64,000 nt of DNA, from positions 73,948 through 137,947 of the IMG/VR virus record IMGVR_UViG_3300042923_000524; one strand, 5' to 3'. Made by a program: the position numbers and the translations under genes. The stretch comes from a virus. Under the pieces are notes generated by a model. That model did no database searches, was not told the origin of the DNA, and saw only the letters and a program-made list of their open reading frames with translations. Shown here piece after piece: positions 2,929 to 43,029 of the stretch; positions within the stretch are counted from its first letter, which is position 1; every line of letters starts with the position of its first letter.

Positions 2929-3858
2929 ATGTATGCTAGTATTGATTTAGGTACAACAAGAATAAAAGACCATCTAGGTAATTGTTATGCGTCTGGAATA
3001 TCAGAGAGAGTTTACGACATGGCAAATTATGTTATGACACTAGAAGGTAAAAAATATACAATGGAATTATTTCATGAGAAAGCAATATACGATGTAAATA
3101 GTAATAAAGCTTTAAATACTAATGCTAGATTAAACTACTTATATGCTTTACACAAAATTACTAATGGTGATATGGGTATATATAAAGATGTTGTTGTACC
3201 CCTACCAGCAAAACAATATGAAAATGAAGAATCTGTAGCAATGTATAAGAAACTTCTTACATTAGATAATTCAATAATGGTTGATGTAAATGGAAATACA
3301 AAAGAAATATATGTTGATAGTGTAGGAATTGTACCAGAGGATTTTCCAGCTTACTATACAGAAGAAATAAATACTGAACGTTTTGGAAATGCAAAAACTC
3401 TATTAATTGGAATTGGTGGATTTAATTCAAATCAATACCTAATAAAGAATGGGGATATAATAAAATCTGACTCAGACGAACAGGGTTGTTTACAGTTATT
3501 TAGTGACATTGCAAGCATTATAAACAGTAAATATAATTCTAATATAAGTCTTGAAGAAGTGTATAGTACTTTAACTAAAGGATTATTTTACAAAGGTGAA
3601 TATATTGATATTTTACCAATTGCTAAAGAACCTATAATGGAATATTGTAAGAAATTTTATAATAAACTCAAACTTAAATTTTCTGTAGATACCGTGCCTT
3701 TTGTTCCTTGCGTGGGAGGCGGTAGCATATTTTTAACAGAATATTTACGTGAATATATCCCCCACTTAGAGTTAATTAAAAATGCACAGAATGTTGCTGC
3801 TAAAGGTATGAGATATATGTTAGGTGTAGATGAATTACAGGATGTGGTTAATTTATGA
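2929..3858 (+). CDS. parM: ParM/StbA-family actin-like segregation ATPase
   Basis: IDLGTTRIK phosphate-1, IGIGGFNSN phosphate-2, VGGGS adenosine motif. Confidence 0.8.
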   Translation: MYASIDLGTTRIKDHLGNCYASGISERVYDMANYVMTLEGKKYTMELFHEKAIYDVNSNKALNTNARLNYLYALHKITNGDMGIYKDVVVPLPAKQYENEESVAMYKKLLTLDNSIMVDVNGNTKEIYVDSVGIVPEDFPAYYTEEINTERFGNAKTLLIGIGGFNSNQYLIKNGDIIKSDSDEQGCLQLFSDIASIINSKYNSNISLEEVYSTLTKGLFYKGEYIDILPIAKEPIMEYCKKFYNKLKLKFSVDTVPFVPCVGGGSIFLTEYLREYIPHLELIKNAQNVAAKGMRYMLGVDELQDVVNL

Positions 3859-4070
3859 GCTGGAGGAGAAGTTTATCATTTTCAACAGATGAAGAGGATT
3901 TAAAGAATCACTTTGATACAGGTGGGAGAAGTGATTTTGCTAAAGAAGCTATGAAATTCTTTATTAAGTTTAGAGATAAGGTTTTTATTGTTCCAGATGG
4001 AATGAGTTTTAATCATTCACCCAAAACAGCACAAATACCAAAGAATAATATTAAGAAATTTATCAAATAA
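3855..4070 (+). CDS. putative ParR-like adaptor / RHH DNA-binding protein
   Basis: overlaps parM stop (ATGA); SLSFST...RSDFAKEAMKFFI RHH-like pattern. Confidence 0.6.
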   Translation: MSWRRSLSFSTDEEDLKNHFDTGGRSDFAKEAMKFFIKFRDKVFIVPDGMSFNHSPKTAQIPKNNIKKFIK

Positions 4071-4220
4071 TACTAATAATTAACATAATTACCTATATAA
4101 AATACTTCTGATGAAATAATTGATTACAAAAGACTTAAAGAACGCATTAAGAGTCTAATCAATAGTTTTATTAGGAGTATTTTTATTATAATCATTTGCT
4201 TAAAATAGGAGGGATATGAA

Positions 4221-4400
4221 TTGGAAGTGATAGGTGCATTTATATATACTTATTTAGAATATGTTGTTGGTGGGGTTGGGGCAGTAGGATTTATAGGGTA
4301 TATGTTGACTAGAAAAACACATGACCATTCAAATGATTTAACCCCTTATGTAGTAAAATTGGGTAGACAAAAAGATGCTATTACTAAACAAACAAAATAA
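4221..4400 (+). CDS. 59-aa membrane protein (not in ORF track)
   Basis: TTG start after GGAGG; hydrophobic YVVGGVGAVGFIGYML. Confidence 0.6.
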   Translation: MEVIGAFIYTYLEYVVGGVGAVGFIGYMLTRKTHDHSNDLTPYVVKLGRQKDAITKQTK

Positions 4401-4416
4401 AGTGAGGTAGTGTATT

Positions 4417-5805
4417 ATGGCAAACCCATTAGCAAAAACAAATTTGAAATCTAAATTAACTAAAGAGGATATTCTAAATCAGAAAAAATATATAAAAGCA
4501 AAAAACGAATTCAAAGAAAAATTCTACAGATTAATGTTTGAGTTAGGTTTGTACAATAAATTCAATAAAACTTATTTCTTACAGATAATGAATGAAACTA
4601 ATTATGGATTTTATGCTCAGTTGTATCTTGTAGATGGTCTTTCGTTTAAACAACTTCAACAAAAAATAGGTGAATTACAGGAGGGATTATGTTGTATTTG
4701 GATAATGCAGACTAAACAATTTGAGAATTATGCTTCAGTAAAGATAGTTACTCAACCTTTAGATGAAAACTTACCATTTGAAAATCCAAAGATTAAACCA
4801 CATCAAATGTATCTAGGTATGAGTTTTTCAATGAAACCTATAATCATAGACGTTGTGTTAAACTGCATGATGCTCTGTGGAGGTGCTACAAACAAAGGAA
4901 AAACTAGATGGATATATTGTGTATTACTTAGTTGGATTTTAGGATGTAAACCTTCAGAAGTTGAATTATATATTTCAGATATTGCAAAGGATGAATACGT
5001 ACTATTTAAGAATGTTAAACATGTTAAGTGTTATGCCAATGAATTGGAACAATTATACAATATGGTACATGAATTAAAACGTAAGTTTGAAGAAAGAAAA
5101 GTATTAATTAGTAAATATAGAGAGACAGGTGAAGCGACTAATATATGGGAATACAATCTAATTAGTAAAAACAAATTATCATATGTTTATTATGTTATAG
5201 ATGAATTATCAGTGTTAATGCCTGATAAAACTGACAGTGAAGATGAAAAAGACATGAAAGGCGAAATACTAGCTATTTCAAAAATGCTAGAAAAGACCGC
5301 TAGAGCATTAGGTATATATGTATTATGTGCGACACAAAAAACTACTAAAGAAGAAATGCCAAGTATTATTAAAAATATGTCAGCCGTAAGAGTAAGTTTC
5401 GGAGCGAATGATGCAGTATCTTCAGAAGTTATTATGGGAGACTCCAGTGCAGTAGGGTTGCAACAGAGATATGCTGTCTACTCTTTAAATGGCGGTGAGA
5501 AGAAAGATTATTTGTTTAGTCCTTACCTAACCACAGATATGTTAAAAATGTTACTAGAGCCGTATAAAACAAATAAAACAGAATTAAACAAACCTAATCC
5601 AATAAAAGAAATACCAACTATTGAAACTCTAGATTTACCGAAACAAATGATTCCTTATAATCAAAATTCAAATTATACACTTCAGCCTATTATATGGAAA
5701 TTAGATGCAAAGTTTAGACCATATAAAAAGCAGGATGTGGAAATTGTAGAAATGCCTAAACCACTATTTCATAATAATGGAGATGATGATTGCATTGATT
5801 ACTGA
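4417..5805 (+). CDS. FtsK/SpoIIIE-domain ATPase
   Basis: Walker A GGATNKGKT, Walker B YYVIDELS, ARALGIYVLCATQK. Confidence 0.9.
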   Translation: MANPLAKTNLKSKLTKEDILNQKKYIKAKNEFKEKFYRLMFELGLYNKFNKTYFLQIMNETNYGFYAQLYLVDGLSFKQLQQKIGELQEGLCCIWIMQTKQFENYASVKIVTQPLDENLPFENPKIKPHQMYLGMSFSMKPIIIDVVLNCMMLCGGATNKGKTRWIYCVLLSWILGCKPSEVELYISDIAKDEYVLFKNVKHVKCYANELEQLYNMVHELKRKFEERKVLISKYRETGEATNIWEYNLISKNKLSYVYYVIDELSVLMPDKTDSEDEKDMKGEILAISKMLEKTARALGIYVLCATQKTTKEEMPSIIKNMSAVRVSFGANDAVSSEVIMGDSSAVGLQQRYAVYSLNGGEKKDYLFSPYLTTDMLKMLLEPYKTNKTELNKPNPIKEIPTIETLDLPKQMIPYNQNSNYTLQPIIWKLDAKFRPYKKQDVEIVEMPKPLFHNNGDDDCIDY

Positions 5806-19348: not shown

Positions 19349-19350
19349 AT

Positions 19351-19419
19351 CTCGACTATGCGAGTATAAACAGACTTTAAGCATAGAGCGTTAACAGGTT
19401 TAACAGCCTGTTAGGTAGT
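19351..19419 (+). ncRNA. pistol self-cleaving ribozyme
   Basis: P1 ctcg/cgag, pseudoknot ctatg/catag, UAUAAACAG linker, P2 act/agt, UUAAGC, GCG, P3 ttaacagg/cctgttag, GU cleavage dinucleotide. Confidence 0.85.
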
Positions 19420-19778
19420 AATAAATAATAAATTAATAGGAGTGATTTATCAATGCCAAGTAAAACAGTAAGAGAAACGGAATATAATAAAACAATCCAA
19501 TATAAAGACGGACAAATGACATATTGTATCAACTATAGAAAAGAATTTCATAAATCATTTATAAATGGTTTTAGATGGGTAGAATGTTAATTCAATAAAA
19601 TCCAAATTTGGTCATCATGTAAAAATTTAGGAGGTGCGTATAATGTGTAGAATCTGTGGAGCAGAAACAAAAGAAACTATTTGTAAAGAGTGTCAAAAAG
19701 AATTAATCAAAGAAAACTATAACAAAACTTTTATTAAAATATCAAAATAAAAATATAAAATTATAGGAGAGTGTAAAA

Positions 19779-21553: not shown

Positions 21554-21625
21554 ACAGGTCACAGCCTGTATAAATAGTGCTTTAAGCTGTGAGCGTGTCA
21601 AGGTATAACAGCCTTGACGATAGCA
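21554..21625 (+). ncRNA. pistol ribozyme (second copy, AU at cleavage junction)
   Basis: P1 acagg/cctgt, pseudoknot tcacag/ctgtga, AUAAAUAG, P2 tgct/agca, UUAAGC, GCG, P3 tgtcaagg/ccttgacg. Confidence 0.8.
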
Positions 21626-33020: not shown

Positions 33021-33689
33021 GTGGTAATTGAAATGACAACATGCATTCAAAACATTAATAGTCACACTACATACGATAAACCAATAAACACACTAATCAA
33101 CGCAGCACAAAAATTATTAGAGGTACGGAAAGGTGATTTGATATTTGTAGACTTTGACCAACTAATAAAAAGTGGTAGAGACCATAGTATACAATCGAAA
33201 CCTAGACCAGCGGTAGTTTTAAGCAATAACGTTGGAAACAAGTTTTCACCTACTATTTGGGTGGCAACATTAACTTCTAATCTTAACAAAAATAAACTAC
33301 CAACACATGTAAAAGTATCTGAAGAAACAGGACTTAGATTTGATTCGTTGGTTTTAGTAGAACAGGTATTCACAATTGACAAAAAACTTATATTATCAAA
33401 AGTGGGGAAATGTTCAGCACATATAATGGAGCAAATTGACACAGCAGTTAAAATTCAAGCAGGTACAATTGATTTAGAGTATATAGAAGATACAGTTAAT
33501 TGGATTAATAAAGTAGAGTGCGAAGCTCGAATAAATGGGTTTGACCCAGAGGATGCAAGATTACACACTAGACTAGTTAAGGAATTGCAATCTTATTGTA
33601 ATCAATATGGATATGATTATACTAAGGTATTAAAAGAAAAAACATTTATAAAAGTCTCCGTGGACAATAGAAAACAAAATGCAATGTAA
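33021..33689 (+). CDS. MazF/PemK (NdoA-like) endoribonuclease toxin with N- and C-terminal extensions
   Basis: KGDLIFVDF, SKPRPAVVLSNNVGNKFSPT, TLTS, DSLVLVEQVFTIDK; catalytic R and T present. Confidence 0.88.
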   Translation: MVIEMTTCIQNINSHTTYDKPINTLINAAQKLLEVRKGDLIFVDFDQLIKSGRDHSIQSKPRPAVVLSNNVGNKFSPTIWVATLTSNLNKNKLPTHVKVSEETGLRFDSLVLVEQVFTIDKKLILSKVGKCSAHIMEQIDTAVKIQAGTIDLEYIEDTVNWINKVECEARINGFDPEDARLHTRLVKELQSYCNQYGYDYTKVLKEKTFIKVSVDNRKQNAM

Positions 33690-37384: not shown

Positions 37385-37661
37385 TTTAAAAATAAAGTAG
37401 TTTTATTACTACTTTAACAAATACAAATATAAAATTTATTTAATAAAAGTGTTGACAAAGGCAAAAAGTGGTAGTAGTATTATAGATAAGAGGTGAGTAT
37501 ATGAAACAATATGGATATATGATTCTTGTTTTAGGTATTATTGGAGTGGCTATAGCAGTGGTAATAAGATTTATAAAATAAGCTAACCAAATTGAGATTT
37601 GGTCGTGATTTTAGAAAAACTAGCCGCTGCGAGAGTAGGGTTGTAGAAAAGGAGAATAAAT

Positions 37662-38453: not shown

Positions 38454-38499
38454 ATAACATTTAAATTTATTGGCACTAAATAATAAAGGCGGTCTTAGC

Positions 38500-38712
38500 A
38501 AAGGAGTAAAACCTTTAATTGTCTGCAAGGATAATTTCGCCTATAGTCGAGATAGTGACAAGTAAATCTTATTAATAAGTTTTGTAATACACTCGATAAG
38601 GTAATAAGTGCGAAAGTGAAGCGAACGTGTTTCTACTGTAGTATTCGCACCTATTGAAACTGCTAACACAAAGTCCGTTAGCACAACTTATAATTAAATA
38701 CAATTGTAACAA
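38500..38712 (+). ncRNA. Cas12f1 tracrRNA (ends approximate)
   Basis: anti-repeat acaacttataattaaatacaattgtaac at 38683-38710; segments cactcgataaggt and tgaaac-stem-acaaag-stem resemble AsCas12f1 tracrRNA as recalled. Confidence 0.8.
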
Positions 38713-38775
38713 TTGAATAGTTTCGCATTATTATAACTTAAAAGTGTTGAAAATGCTGTTTTGGATTTGTAAGCA

Positions 38776-39070
38776 GTTACAATTTGTATATTATATAGGT
38801 TGTAAGTTTTAGAGCATTGATTTCTGTTTCTATTGCGTTTAAAGTTACAATTTGTATATTATATGAGTTGTAAGTTACTTTGCAAATGTCGAAAATAGAT
38901 GTATAATTATTACAATTTGTATATAAATATGGGTTGTAAGTTGACTACAGGTGTTAATATTTATTTATTCTTCATGTTGCAGTGTATTATATGAGCTGTA
39001 AGTTTAAAAGCCATTTATAAAATCATCTTTGTATTTGCTTTTGCAATCTGTATATTATATGAGTTCTAAG
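38776..39070 (+). CRISPR. CRISPR array, 5 repeats / 4 spacers
   Basis: repeat GTTACAATTTGTATATTATATGAGTTGTAAG at 38776, 38844, 38909, 38976 (degenerate) and 39040; spacers 37, 34, 35, 37 nt. Confidence 0.92.
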
Positions 39071-39176
39071 ACATAATTAATTGGAAAAGTTAATATATAA
39101 TAATAAATTGTAAATGATAGATGTTATGATGTGAATTTAATTTATATAAGAAAAAATATAAAATAGGAGAGATAAG

Positions 39177-40490
39177 ATGAATAAATGTATAAAAATAACA
39201 ATAAAAAATTGTATAAATATAGATAAATATAGACAGGTATTAAGGGATTTAAGATATCAAACTTGGTTAGCAAGTAATAAAGCTATGACTAATTATTATA
39301 CTTTTGCATTAGAGAACATGGAATATAAAAACATAAATGGAATCAACATAAATGAGAAAGAGAGATATGGTAAAAGTTATGATGCATGGATACAAAATAG
39401 AATGAATGAGATTATGACCATGCATCAAAGTGGGAATGTAGCTCAAACAGCACAATTTGTCGCTAAGAGATTTAAAGACGATATAAAAAAAGGTATGTTT
39501 AAAGGCAAGATATCAATATCTAATTTTAAACAAGATATCCCACTTATTATACATAATAAAAACTATAAAATCATACAGGGTGATAAGGGATATAAAATTG
39601 AATGTAGTTTATTTAATAGAGAATACCAAAAAGAAAATATTATTAAAAAAGCTGAATTTCAAATTGATAAGATTGATAATAATTGTAAAAGTGTATTAAA
39701 TAGAATTATATCTGGTGAATATAAGCAGGGTTCTATGCAAATTACAGAAGATAAAAAAGGTAAATGGTATTTTATAATTAGTTATAGTTTTGAAGCATCC
39801 AAACAAACTTTTGACCAAAATAGAATATTAGGCATAGATTTAGGTATAACTAAAGTAGCTACAATGCAAATATTTGATAAAACCATTGAAGAGTGGGATA
39901 GATTATCTTGGAAAGAATGTATGATGGATGGTAGAGAGTTAATACATTATAGACAAAAGATAGAAGCGAGAAAAAAACAATTACAAATAGCTAGTAAGTG
40001 GTGTGGAGAAGGTAGAGTTGGTCATGGTACTAAAACAAGAATGAAACCTTTAGATAAAATAGGAAGTGTGGTAAGTAATTTTAAAGATACATATAATCAT
40101 AAAATAAGCAGATATATAATAGATTTTGCTATTAAACATAATTGCGGAATAATTCAAATGGAAGATTTAAGTGGATTTAGTGAACAACAAACAGAAAGTT
40201 TATTAAAGAATTGGAGTTATTTTGATTTACAAACTAAGATAAAATATAAAGCCGAAGAAAAGGGAGTAGAGGTTATATTTATTAATCCTCAATATACAAG
40301 TAAAAGATGTAGTAGGTGTGGTTGTATAGACACACGAAATAGAGATTGTGAAAATAATCAATCCAAGTTTGAATGTGTAACTTGTGGTCATAAAGAAAAT
40401 GCAGATATAAATGCAGCGAAAAATATTAGTATGCCTGATATTGAAGAAATTATTGGTGAATACATAAAATATGGTTTAAAAGTAAGTTAA
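39177..40490 (+). CDS. cas12f1: Cas12f1 (type V-F, TnpB-related) RNA-guided nuclease
   Basis: RuvC ILGIDLG, IQMEDLS, NADINAA; CSRC...CVTC; VGHGTKTRMKP and IISGEYK segments like AsCas12f1; adjacent array and tracrRNA. Confidence 0.88.
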   Translation: MNKCIKITIKNCINIDKYRQVLRDLRYQTWLASNKAMTNYYTFALENMEYKNINGININEKERYGKSYDAWIQNRMNEIMTMHQSGNVAQTAQFVAKRFKDDIKKGMFKGKISISNFKQDIPLIIHNKNYKIIQGDKGYKIECSLFNREYQKENIIKKAEFQIDKIDNNCKSVLNRIISGEYKQGSMQITEDKKGKWYFIISYSFEASKQTFDQNRILGIDLGITKVATMQIFDKTIEEWDRLSWKECMMDGRELIHYRQKIEARKKQLQIASKWCGEGRVGHGTKTRMKPLDKIGSVVSNFKDTYNHKISRYIIDFAIKHNCGIIQMEDLSGFSEQQTESLLKNWSYFDLQTKIKYKAEEKGVEVIFINPQYTSKRCSRCGCIDTRNRDCENNQSKFECVTCGHKENADINAAKNISMPDIEEIIGEYIKYGLKVS

Positions 40491-40633
40491 TTAATAATAA
40501 ATATAAAATTAAATATATAAACCACTTGTAATTTTTTATTCTTAGTAGTATACTAATATTAGGAAATATACAAAAACAAAAATATAGCGTTTCCAATGGT
40601 TGTAGCAATCGCAAATGACCATAAAATCGGGAT

Positions 40634-43029
40634 TTGGTCAGAAGTATAAATTTAGGAGGTATAACGATGATAGAATTATTTTGTTTAGAACATGACTGTG
40701 ACTTTAACATTAATGGTAAATGTGAAAGAGTAGATTTACAAGCTAGGTATGATGCTTCTATTGGTTCTGTTGTATTAGAAACAGAAAATTATGAGTTATG
40801 TTATAAAAGAGAGAAATAGAAAATAATTCATGGAGGGCAAACAAGATGCAATTAAAATGTATTTTTAGTATGAAAGGTATAGATATTACTCTTAATAAAA
40901 TCTATGAATTATTAGACGAAGATAATTTGAATTATTACATTTATGATGATATGAACGGATATAGGGCATTTAGTAAATTTATGTTTGAAAAGATTCAATG
41001 AAAACGATATTCTATCTAAATATGAAAGGAGATTAAATAATGGAACAAAATTATTTAGCAACATATAGAAATGGTGATAATTTTGAATATGCATGGTTTG
41101 GAACAGAAGAAGAGGCATTAGAATGGATAGATATAGAATCTCAAAAATATACAAATGTAGAAGTAGTGGAATTAAAAGTTGTAAATGTTCTATTTGAAAG
41201 AGACTAGCAAATGGTTATTCTAATGAAATTTAGAAAGGAATGTTTAATAATGAATAAATTTCAAAAATTTGTAAGTAGGAAAGCAAAGCAAATGATTCGT
41301 AATGAAAAAAATTCTCGTAGTTTTAGATACTATAGAAAAGAATGGAGATTTATAAAATCAGAAGTTCTTGATAGTCAAATTGATTTTGAAAAAACAAATA
41401 ATTTTAAAGAAAAACAATACTCTTATTTATCTGGTGAAACTGACCCACATTGATAAAATAACGACAAAATGCGAGATTGATAGGGAGTTGATAAATTGAA
41501 GGTAATTATAAAAACAGCATATAATGTAGACTTAAAATATATTTACTCTCATGTAAAACCATTGGTAGATAAAAATGTATTTATTAAACGTATTAGAGAT
41601 GAAGTAAGTCAATATGTAAAAGCCTGTTTAGACACTTCCACAAATGAAAATGGGAATGGATTAGAAGATAACATTATCTACTATCTAATTCAAGATGGAT
41701 ATGCTGAAGCTAAATCAGAACATGCTAAGTATTTAATTACTGAATGAATATTTTAGGAGGCGGTTTATATGAACAAATATATAGTAAGAATTACTCCATT
41801 ATATAAAGATACTTTAAATCAATTTGGAAATATAGTTTTTGAGTCAAAATTAATTAATAGTTTGGTGGGATTGGAATCTGAATTATCAATAAATGATATA
41901 TGGAATATTCCACATGTATTTAAAGTAGAAGAAGATGTTGAAGGAAAATTCGATTAAAATGTTAATAGTATATGTGTTTTGAGGTGATTTAATGAATGAA
42001 AAAGAAGAATGGATTATAGATTATTTAAAAAATAAGACCGCATTTAAATTTATAGATATGCTGGATGAAGATTTTGTTGAAGCATATATAGATGAATTTG
42101 AAGTTAAAAGCCAAAACATGACGTTAGGAGCTTCTAAGTGTAAGGAATTATCAAAGCTGCTTGGTAGTATGTATAAAAAAGGCTTATTGAATAGATTTCC
42201 TCATGGTGTGAGAAGTGGTTATAATCAAGATTATGCGAATTTTAAAGCACCTAAGTGGGTATATTCATATGAATTAATAAATTAAGACAAAATGTGGATT
42301 TGGAGAAAATATTGAAAGGAGTTATATATTATGGGTTCAGCACAACAAGACTTTAATAAGTTTATAGAATATAAAAGAAAGTTTAGAAATAAAGTAATAA
42401 TTAAATCTGTTATCGGTATTATTTTTGTGACATTTATTATATATAAAGTATTATTAATATAATTCCAATAAAAGGTGAAATTGATTGGGAGTTGGTAATA
42501 AAATGAAAAATAAATTAATTGGTAAAAAAGTAGATATAATCGACAAAGAATCAATATATTATAAACATTGGGGTTTTATAAGAGGTTTTGATGGAGATGT
42601 TTATCATATAAATGGTGGTTCTATATCTTTAAATAATGGTGACTTAACTCCCATATTTGATAGAAATCAATTTTCAGTTAGAAGAAGGCAAGAAGGAGAC
42701 AATAATGAAGTGTAATAACTGTACATGTAAGAAATGTAAAAATTACGAATGTGAATATCATTGTAAGGATATGACTGATTTAGAGAAACAAATATGTGAT
42801 ATGGATGTATCTGGAGAATGTGATTGTTTTAAAGGAGAAAAAGATGTTAGAAAAAGTTAATCAAAACAAAGAATTAAACAAATATGTAACTATAGTTTGT
42901 CAAGATAAGATTGGTGATAATTTCTTAGAAGCCACTGTCAAAGTTAATGCCACAATAATAATTGATAATGATGACATTAAAGATTTCTCTAAAGAGATAA
43001 GAAGATTAATACTTGGATATAAAGTTTAA
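40634..43029 (+). other. cluster of small co-oriented hypothetical ORFs (40634, 41211, 41496, 41769, 41992, 42485, 42657, 42796)
   Basis: ORF track, RBSs, separated by short conserved intergenic elements. Confidence 0.6.

Follow-up and report, generated by a model that had tools for sequence, protein, structure and literature searches.

A probable type V-F1 CRISPR-Cas12f1 module in the genome of a 138-kb tailed phage

We analysed a 64,000-nucleotide (nt) stretch of viral DNA (hereafter the window), which forms the last 64 kb (positions 73,948 to 137,947) of the 137,947-bp IMG/VR virus record IMGVR_UViG_3300042923_000524. At window positions 38485–40490, on the plus strand, lies a locus made up of a trans-activating RNA (tracrRNA) gene, a leader, a CRISPR array and an intact effector gene. 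We conclude, with a probability of roughly 85%, that a 138-kb tailed phage, whose host is probably a Clostridium, carries in this locus an accessory cassette, namely a self-contained CRISPR-Cas module of type V-F1 (former V-U3, AsCas12f1-like). The evidence consists of the anatomy of the locus, protein and RNA homology to AsCas12f1, covariation in the RNA, the phage context, the absence of adaptation and transposase genes, and placement in an array-associated protein clade. Published work already covers this class of enzyme, its need for a tracrRNA, its lack of adaptation genes and its association with mobile elements; new here are this Cas12f1 orthologue, its RNA parts, and a lead provided by the second spacer (S2).

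The tracrRNA-array-effector locus

A first-pass annotation had described a tracrRNA with anti-repeat, a leader, five decaying repeats, four distinct spacers and a 437-amino-acid (aa) nuclease with the RuvC acidic residues, and all of these were found where it placed them, on the plus strand. Its overall claim, a phage-borne minimal tracrRNA-array-Cas12f1 locus of AsCas12f1 type, is borne out by a full-length structure match, a covarying As-like tracrRNA and phage hallmark genes in the record. The parts of the locus are as follows (repeat and spacer boundaries are ±3 nt, as an A before and a TT after the repeat core are also repeated).

38485–38711, plus strand: tracrRNA gene (predicted 5' end at the start of conservation, AAAGG; 3' end at the end of the anti-repeat)
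38494–38498, plus strand: candidate pseudoknot loop CUUAG of the first tracrRNA stem, complementary to the repeat 3' end UAAG
38682–38711, plus strand: anti-repeat, forming two helices with the 3' and 5' parts of the repeat
38712–38775, plus strand: leader
38776–39070, plus strand: CRISPR array, five direct repeats at 62–68-nt spacing
38776–38806, 38844–38874, 38909–38940, 38975–39002 and 39040–39070, plus strand: repeats R1, R2, R3, R4 and R5
38807–38843, 38875–38908, 38941–38974 and 39003–39039, plus strand: spacers S1, S2, S3 and S4
39177–40490, plus strand: cas12f1 gene, 437 aa (ribosome-binding site AGGAGAG at 39165–39171)

The best matches of the protein in the Protein Data Bank (PDB) were the AsCas12f1 structures 8J12, 7WJU and 8DZJ (phmmer, E 3e-81 to 3e-80; query residues 17–431 of 437). 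Further matches were to 9NZQ ('Cas12f', 1e-71), 9I8Y ('Cas12f1', 6e-64), 9NZP (9e-38; named as a TnpB in its deposition) and 8HR5 (2e-37), with Un1Cas12f1/Cas14a1 reaching merely 1e-24. In the HMMER alignment to 8j12_A, residues D221, E329 and D410 stand opposite AsCas12f1 D225, E324 and D401 (As numbering allows for a 10-residue tag offset, taken from the 7wju/8j12 ranges), and this RuvC triad and the zinc-ribbon cysteines C378, C381, C400 and C403 are invariant in 16 homologues. The Pfam Cas12f1-like TNB domain (PF07282) was recognised at 78.9 bits (cut-off 26.3), and a match to OrfB_IS605 was sub-threshold. Membership in Cas12f2 (type V-F2) was rejected based on the NCBIfam CRISPR_Cas12f2 model (117.4 bits against a cut-off of 450). 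The Cas12 'hacker'/Cas12p family (bioRxiv 10.1101/2025.01.20.633832), a different and larger family with a GTN protospacer-adjacent motif (PAM), was set aside.

Judging from the sequence, a tracrRNA with an anti-repeat is present. The 300 nt preceding the array are conserved in related viral contigs, where they again lie upstream of the cas12f homologue; the tracrRNA scaffold occupies this position in 22 related loci. A motif from this region, GCACNNATTGAAANT-N6-7-CAAANNCCG, retrieved 7 viral and 48 metagenomic stretches; of the stretches that extend far enough downstream, about two dozen carry a cas12f homologue 360–560 nt further on. Across an alignment of 23 distinct tracrRNA scaffolds, conservation begins at AAAGG (window 38485), and RNAalifold predicted 22 base pairs, seven of them with compensatory changes. 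When the fold of the window tracrRNA was mapped onto this alignment, 79.7% of cells were paired (compared with 32–41% with slid partners) and 14 pairs change on both sides; these values were reached by none of 500 shuffles. Helices 1, 4, 6, 7 and 9 were well supported by the mapping. Moreover, the published AsCas12f1 single-guide RNA (sgRNA) scaffold (bioRxiv 10.1101/2022.10.20.513037) aligns locally with window 38538–38690 at a score of 61, against 25 ± 4.5 (maximum 42) for shuffles.

The predicted anti-repeat duplex (RNAduplex) has an energy of -21.8 kcal/mol with R1, falling off to -14.0 kcal/mol with R5. In seven of eight related loci whose repeats diverge, the best partner of the anti-repeat is the repeat of its own locus; the mean energy is -27.2 kcal/mol for own and -18.1 kcal/mol for non-own repeats. 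The loop CUUAG and the repeat end UAAG may correspond to the GUUCA/UGAAC pair of AsCas12f1, and their pairing would form the pseudoknot typical of Cas12 tracrRNAs. In one related locus (L034), the tracrRNA loop is CUUG and the repeat end CAAG, a compensatory change as read from the sequences.

The leader holds a promoter-like site, GTAACA-17-TATTAT, at 38706–38734 (promoter scan; a consensus match only), as well as a partial repeat end, TTTGTAAGC, immediately before R1. Most relatives (leaders of loci L037–L088) have a conserved block, AATTnAATAGnTTCGCA, after the anti-repeat, followed by a half repeat, GAGTTGTAAG; the window leader is a degenerate form of this arrangement, with TTTGTAAGC added before R1. 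The repeat core is 31 nt long (GTTACAA...GTAAG), and identity to R1 declines towards the gene (29, 28, 22 and 25 of 31 positions for R2, R3, R4 and R5, respectively). The array ends 107 nt upstream of the cas12f start codon, and its four spacers are unrelated to one another. A loose repeat pattern run over the whole 137,947-bp genome gave a five-copy cluster here alone, the other six matches being scattered singles. In R1–R4, GTAAG is followed by TT. Because the two bases after GTAAG are constant within arrays, the duplicated unit, on the sequences compared, does extend past GTAAG; among the relatives these bases differ between arrays (AT, TA, AC, CA), and this family pattern agrees with the earlier suggestion that the TT belongs to the repeat unit.

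We infer how the phage Cas12f1 system would be expressed and processed, how it would dimerise, its PAM, its cleavage activity and its biological target. A tracrRNA of ~225 nt (38485–38711) would be transcribed from its own promoter, and the leader promoter would drive transcription of the array, probably together with cas12f. Each repeat would pair with the tracrRNA twice, namely the repeat body with the anti-repeat and the repeat end UAAG with CUUA of the 5' stem-loop. The 437-aa Cas12f1 would bind this dual RNA as a homodimer, as AsCas12f1 does, and its RuvC site (D221/E329/D410) would cut spacer-matching double-stranded DNA beside a 5' T-rich PAM.

Relatives, distribution and the TnpB alternative

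More than 860 homologues were detected, the nearest database relative being 72% identical to the phage protein. What stays together among relatives is the tracrRNA, the array and the gene, while the 3' flank and the neighbouring genes vary. In a protein tree of 77 relatives (FastTree only, without named Cas12f references), the phage protein falls in a 26-row clade of Clostridiaceae and phages (support 100), 22 of whose 26 members have an adjacent array. This clade is nested in a 48-row array-associated Bacillota clade (support 99), in which the proteins of two isolated phages, Mgbh1 and MMB025, are also found. On the other side of the tree lie fourteen proteins without arrays, which come from diverse phyla, match the RuvC half only and in some cases are multi-copy per genome. 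Within the Clostridium genus that contains C. paraputrificum, a homologue was present in 4 of 124 scored genomes, a sporadic distribution consistent with an accessory gene.

We also weighed an alternative in which the gene encodes a TnpB of the IS200/IS605 type that uses an omega-RNA of its own, and the repeats before it are unrelated debris. Among the NCBIfam models, the protein cleared only that of the generic guided_TnpB subfamily (171 bits against a cut-off of 100), and because of this the database relatives are all named 'transposase' or 'TnpB'. The IS200_TnpB model itself, however, gave 65 bits against a cut-off of 425, the 138-kb record holds no match to the Y1 transposase (Y1_Tnp; tnpA), and cas12f is single copy in the genome. 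Moreover, the tracrRNA and array are conserved and co-varying, and the tree sets the protein apart from the array-less multi-copy TnpBs. A comparison of the 190-nt 3' flank and neighbouring small open reading frames (ORFs) found no conserved 3' RNA among the relatives. A TnpB-omegaRNA unit was accordingly rejected as highly improbable, given the missing Y1 transposase, the single copy and the unconserved 3' flank; the check that the first-pass annotation had proposed, clustering with insertion sequence-associated TnpB using omega-RNA, thus came out against TnpB.

Homologues resembling the phage Cas12f1 (37–56% identical), each with a small array adjoining, are encoded by 54-kb Clostridium perfringens phage-plasmids (NZ_CP148631.1), Bacillus phage Mgbh1 (gp53) and Alicyclobacillus phage MMB025. 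All are labelled 'transposase', and their records carry no CRISPR-Cas description. In the C. perfringens locus examined (L004, positions 3062–4402 of the locus), the 55–56% identical homologue lies between capsid and tail genes, with a mini-array at 4564–4666; unlike in the window, that array (two 37-nt repeats) is downstream of the gene and belongs to another repeat family. In MMB025 (locus L033, 2206–3784), a CRISPR is annotated directly upstream of the 37% identical homologue, and in Mgbh1 (locus L032, 1847–3730; 37% identical) the 580-nt upstream gap holds a repeat pair. In a further viral contig (IMGVR_UViG_3300025575_000016, locus L012, 1981–2500), a single tracr-like scaffold lies between two different repeat families, upstream of a cas12f with 68% identity; this may be a layout with two arrays. 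A large phage and plasmid clade labelled 'transposase/TnpB', including isolated phages and C. perfringens phage-plasmids, consists of CRISPR effectors with their own guide RNAs. The phage locus is further evidence that phages and plasmids are the main carriers of the adaptation-less V-F1 branch, and it raises the questions of how V-F1 arrays gain spacers and what they aim at.

Phage context, array history and spacer targets

The part of the record beyond the window has genes for a tape measure protein, a minor tail protein, a portal protein and a DNA polymerase; the window itself codes for a partition protein, recombinases, an FtsK-like protein, an NAD-dependent ligase and DNA methyltransferases. 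Given tail, portal, polymerase and other such genes in the same record, it is that of a tailed phage, and the locus is phage-borne. The record has direct terminal repeats of 127 bp (exact in our check), a CheckV completeness of 79%, and a GC content of 26–30% throughout. The host is probably a Clostridium, judging solely from the relatives and the base composition.

No Cas1, Cas2 or Cas4 was found by Pfam search of the whole 138-kb record, in agreement with the absence of cas1/cas2/cas4 noted earlier. Type V-U3/Cas12f1 systems, which occur in Clostridia and Bacilli, are without adaptation genes (PMC7229846), and the Cas12f branch is associated with arrays only, its spacers matching phages and plasmids (PMC10691335). 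The absence is hence the published norm for this branch rather than a special feature (PMC7229846, PMC10691335). Related loci have some spacers in common and differ in others; therefore the arrays turn over. For the array studied here, recent acquisition at the leader end is argued against, because R1 and R2 are not identical. The proposal in the first-pass annotation that the array relies on host adaptation machinery found no supporting evidence.

Several observations weigh against a working module as described above. The array looks old: R1 and R2 already disagree at two of their 31 positions, and decay is severe in R4 and R5, which pair more weakly with the anti-repeat. Helix 8 of the tracrRNA was not conserved in the alignment mapping, and the single-sequence tracrRNA fold was modestly better than shuffles (z = -1.75). 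The array also lies upstream of the gene, compared with mostly downstream in published surveys (PMC10691335); it is upstream in 17 of the 49 array-bearing relatives of the tree as well. Lastly, clear targets were found for none of the spacers, whether in the phage's own sequence, in GenBank phages, in PLSDB plasmids, in IMG/VR (by exact 22-mers) or in the related loci.

Such features could be those of a relic, in which an intact nuclease sits beside an array decaying without useful guides, the whole being a leftover passenger of no current use to the phage. The progressive repeat divergence (anti-repeat pairing from -22 to -14 kcal/mol), the want of a convincing spacer target and the missing adaptation genes are all consistent with this. 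However, the ORF is full length with every catalytic and zinc residue kept, R1–R3 still pair well with the anti-repeat, and all family-conserved tracrRNA helices are retained. Short imperfect arrays are also the rule across the clade, yet protein, tracrRNA and array stay together in many phages. We consequently regard a relic as distinctly unlikely and favour an intact V-F1 module.

Spacer targets were sought at several scales. Searches of S1–S5 (blastn-short) against the genome of the phage and every locus compared returned self matches only, and the whole array gave only chance matches (E ≥ 0.3) against GenBank phages and PLSDB plasmids. Exact 22-mers of S1–S4 had no match in IMG/VR. Spacers of 22 related arrays, searched against the phage and all loci, hit homologous arrays only. 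In 130 Clostridium genomes, S1 (≤3 mismatches) and S3 and S4 (BLAST) yielded nothing usable; a BLAST over 393 genomes of the family scored only two candidates per genome and was therefore not exhaustive. With clear targets lacking for all spacers, a role in defence or competition is an assumption rather than an observation, and the earlier suggestion of a weapon against competing elements drew no support from the phage, plasmid, IMG/VR and related-locus searches. The most likely targets of the phage Cas12f1 would be other mobile elements that share its host, as has been published for V-F arrays at large.

S2 provided a lead. Taken as window 38876–38909, it matches, at 31 of 34 positions, an intergenic region of one Clostridium genome that is bounded by a cardiolipin-synthase-like gene and lies upstream of a gene for pyruvate:ferredoxin oxidoreductase (PFOR), and the similarity stops exactly at the flanking repeats. 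The match is unique at ≤3 mismatches in 130 genomes of the genus and 401 of the family, with a reversed-pattern control of zero. S2 is itself a near-consensus sigma-70 promoter (TTGCAA-16-TATAAT). The chance expectation for the match is ~0.01–0.02, a rough figure that assumes independent bases, counts spacers and genomes, and precedes correction for shared hexamers; the chance of such a match is inflated because real promoters share hexamers. The match may reflect a host-directed guide, a captured internal promoter, or chance.

S2 may be a host-directed guide. The spacer would derive from and be aimed at the host PFOR promoter, and Cas12f would act on the host chromosome, by cutting or blocking it (host takeover), instead of on rivals. 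Besides the bounded and solitary match, the target fits in that, if the spacer starts after GTAAG, its 5' flank is ATTA, T-rich with a purine at -1. Several points tell against it: this is a single imperfect match (three mismatches plus one at the first spacer base) to AT-rich, promoter-like sequence, the assignment of the phage host to Clostridium is itself only probable, and S1, S3 and S4 lack a comparable match. Cutting the chromosome would also be lethal in a lysogen, and the phage has partition and recombinase genes. We therefore consider host takeover through S2 unlikely. The broader proposition, that S2 either aims Cas12f at the host PFOR promoter (attack or silencing) or serves as a captured array-internal promoter for the downstream guides and cas12f, is doubtful. 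If true, the former would represent RNA-guided attack on, or silencing of, a central host metabolic gene by a phage-encoded CRISPR system.

Other features of the phage genome lie around the module. Palindromes of a type found genome-wide (ACCAAAT-N4-ATTTGGT) occur at window 37585–37602 and about 40619–40641, bracketing a block of small ORFs and the CRISPR-Cas12f module, and the 3' flank of cas12f matches another genome copy of this palindrome type. A MazF-like growth inhibitor (33021–33689; PHROG 1936, E 2e-27) is encoded 5.5 kb upstream in the same accessory region. The phage early region holds two Pistol self-cleaving ribozymes (19350–19420 and 21554–21625, plus strand; 64.1 and 59.9 bits, gathering score 34.5).

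Comparison with known systems

The closest characterised system is AsCas12f1 of Acidibacillus sulfuroxidans (type V-F1), which the phage enzyme resembles in size (422 aa versus 437 aa), RuvC triad and zinc ribbon, at ~40% protein identity (a rough estimate from the structure-match alignment). The As system likewise has no adaptation genes, and the As and Sp enzymes interfere with plasmids in Escherichia coli (PMC7229846); a passage of PMC8795892, citing Karvelis 2020, gives TTTR as the best reported As PAM. The two tracrRNAs have the same stem order and share the blocks CGAGAnAGTG, CTCGnTAAGGTA, TGAAACT and CACAAAGnCCG, of which the last two lie, by eye, inside an equivalent hairpin. They differ in that the first stem of the phage tracrRNA has two extra hairpins and stem 3 is longer, and the repeat ends in ..GTAAG in the phage and ..GTGAAC in As. 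In contrast to As, the phage array and tracrRNA are upstream of the gene, and the carrier is a phage with 27% GC. As a very compact (437 aa) AsCas12f1-like nuclease with a predicted natural tracrRNA and repeat, from a low-GC phage with relatives in Clostridium, it is a candidate tool; it belongs to a pool of relatives, hundreds in number and unannotated, that could extend the available ranges of PAM and temperature.

Other members of the family, namely 9NZQ (433 aa), 9I8Y (500 aa), 8HR5 (497 aa) and Un1Cas12f1/Cas14a1 (7L48, 7C7L), have the same C-terminal RuvC/TNB core and are progressively more distant, with Un1 and 8HR5 having a longer N-terminus than the phage enzyme. Cas14-type loci can carry cas1, cas2 and cas4 (PMC7229846). 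The TnpB proteins of IS200/IS605 elements have the ancestral fold and RuvC/zinc-ribbon core in common with the phage Cas12f1, which also passes the generic TnpB profile. Unlike TnpB, the phage enzyme would take its guides from a CRISPR array and a separate tracrRNA, and its gene has no accompanying transposase, multiple copies or 3' guide scaffold.

Type V-F systems are enriched on plasmids, and virus-borne mini-arrays that use host Cas proteins are likewise short viral arrays without adaptation genes, with a proposed role in inter-element conflict (PMC11656645). Those mini-arrays copy the host repeat and depend on host effectors (PMC11656645), whereas the phage locus has its own effector and tracrRNA, and a mini-array exploiting host Cas was rejected on this ground.

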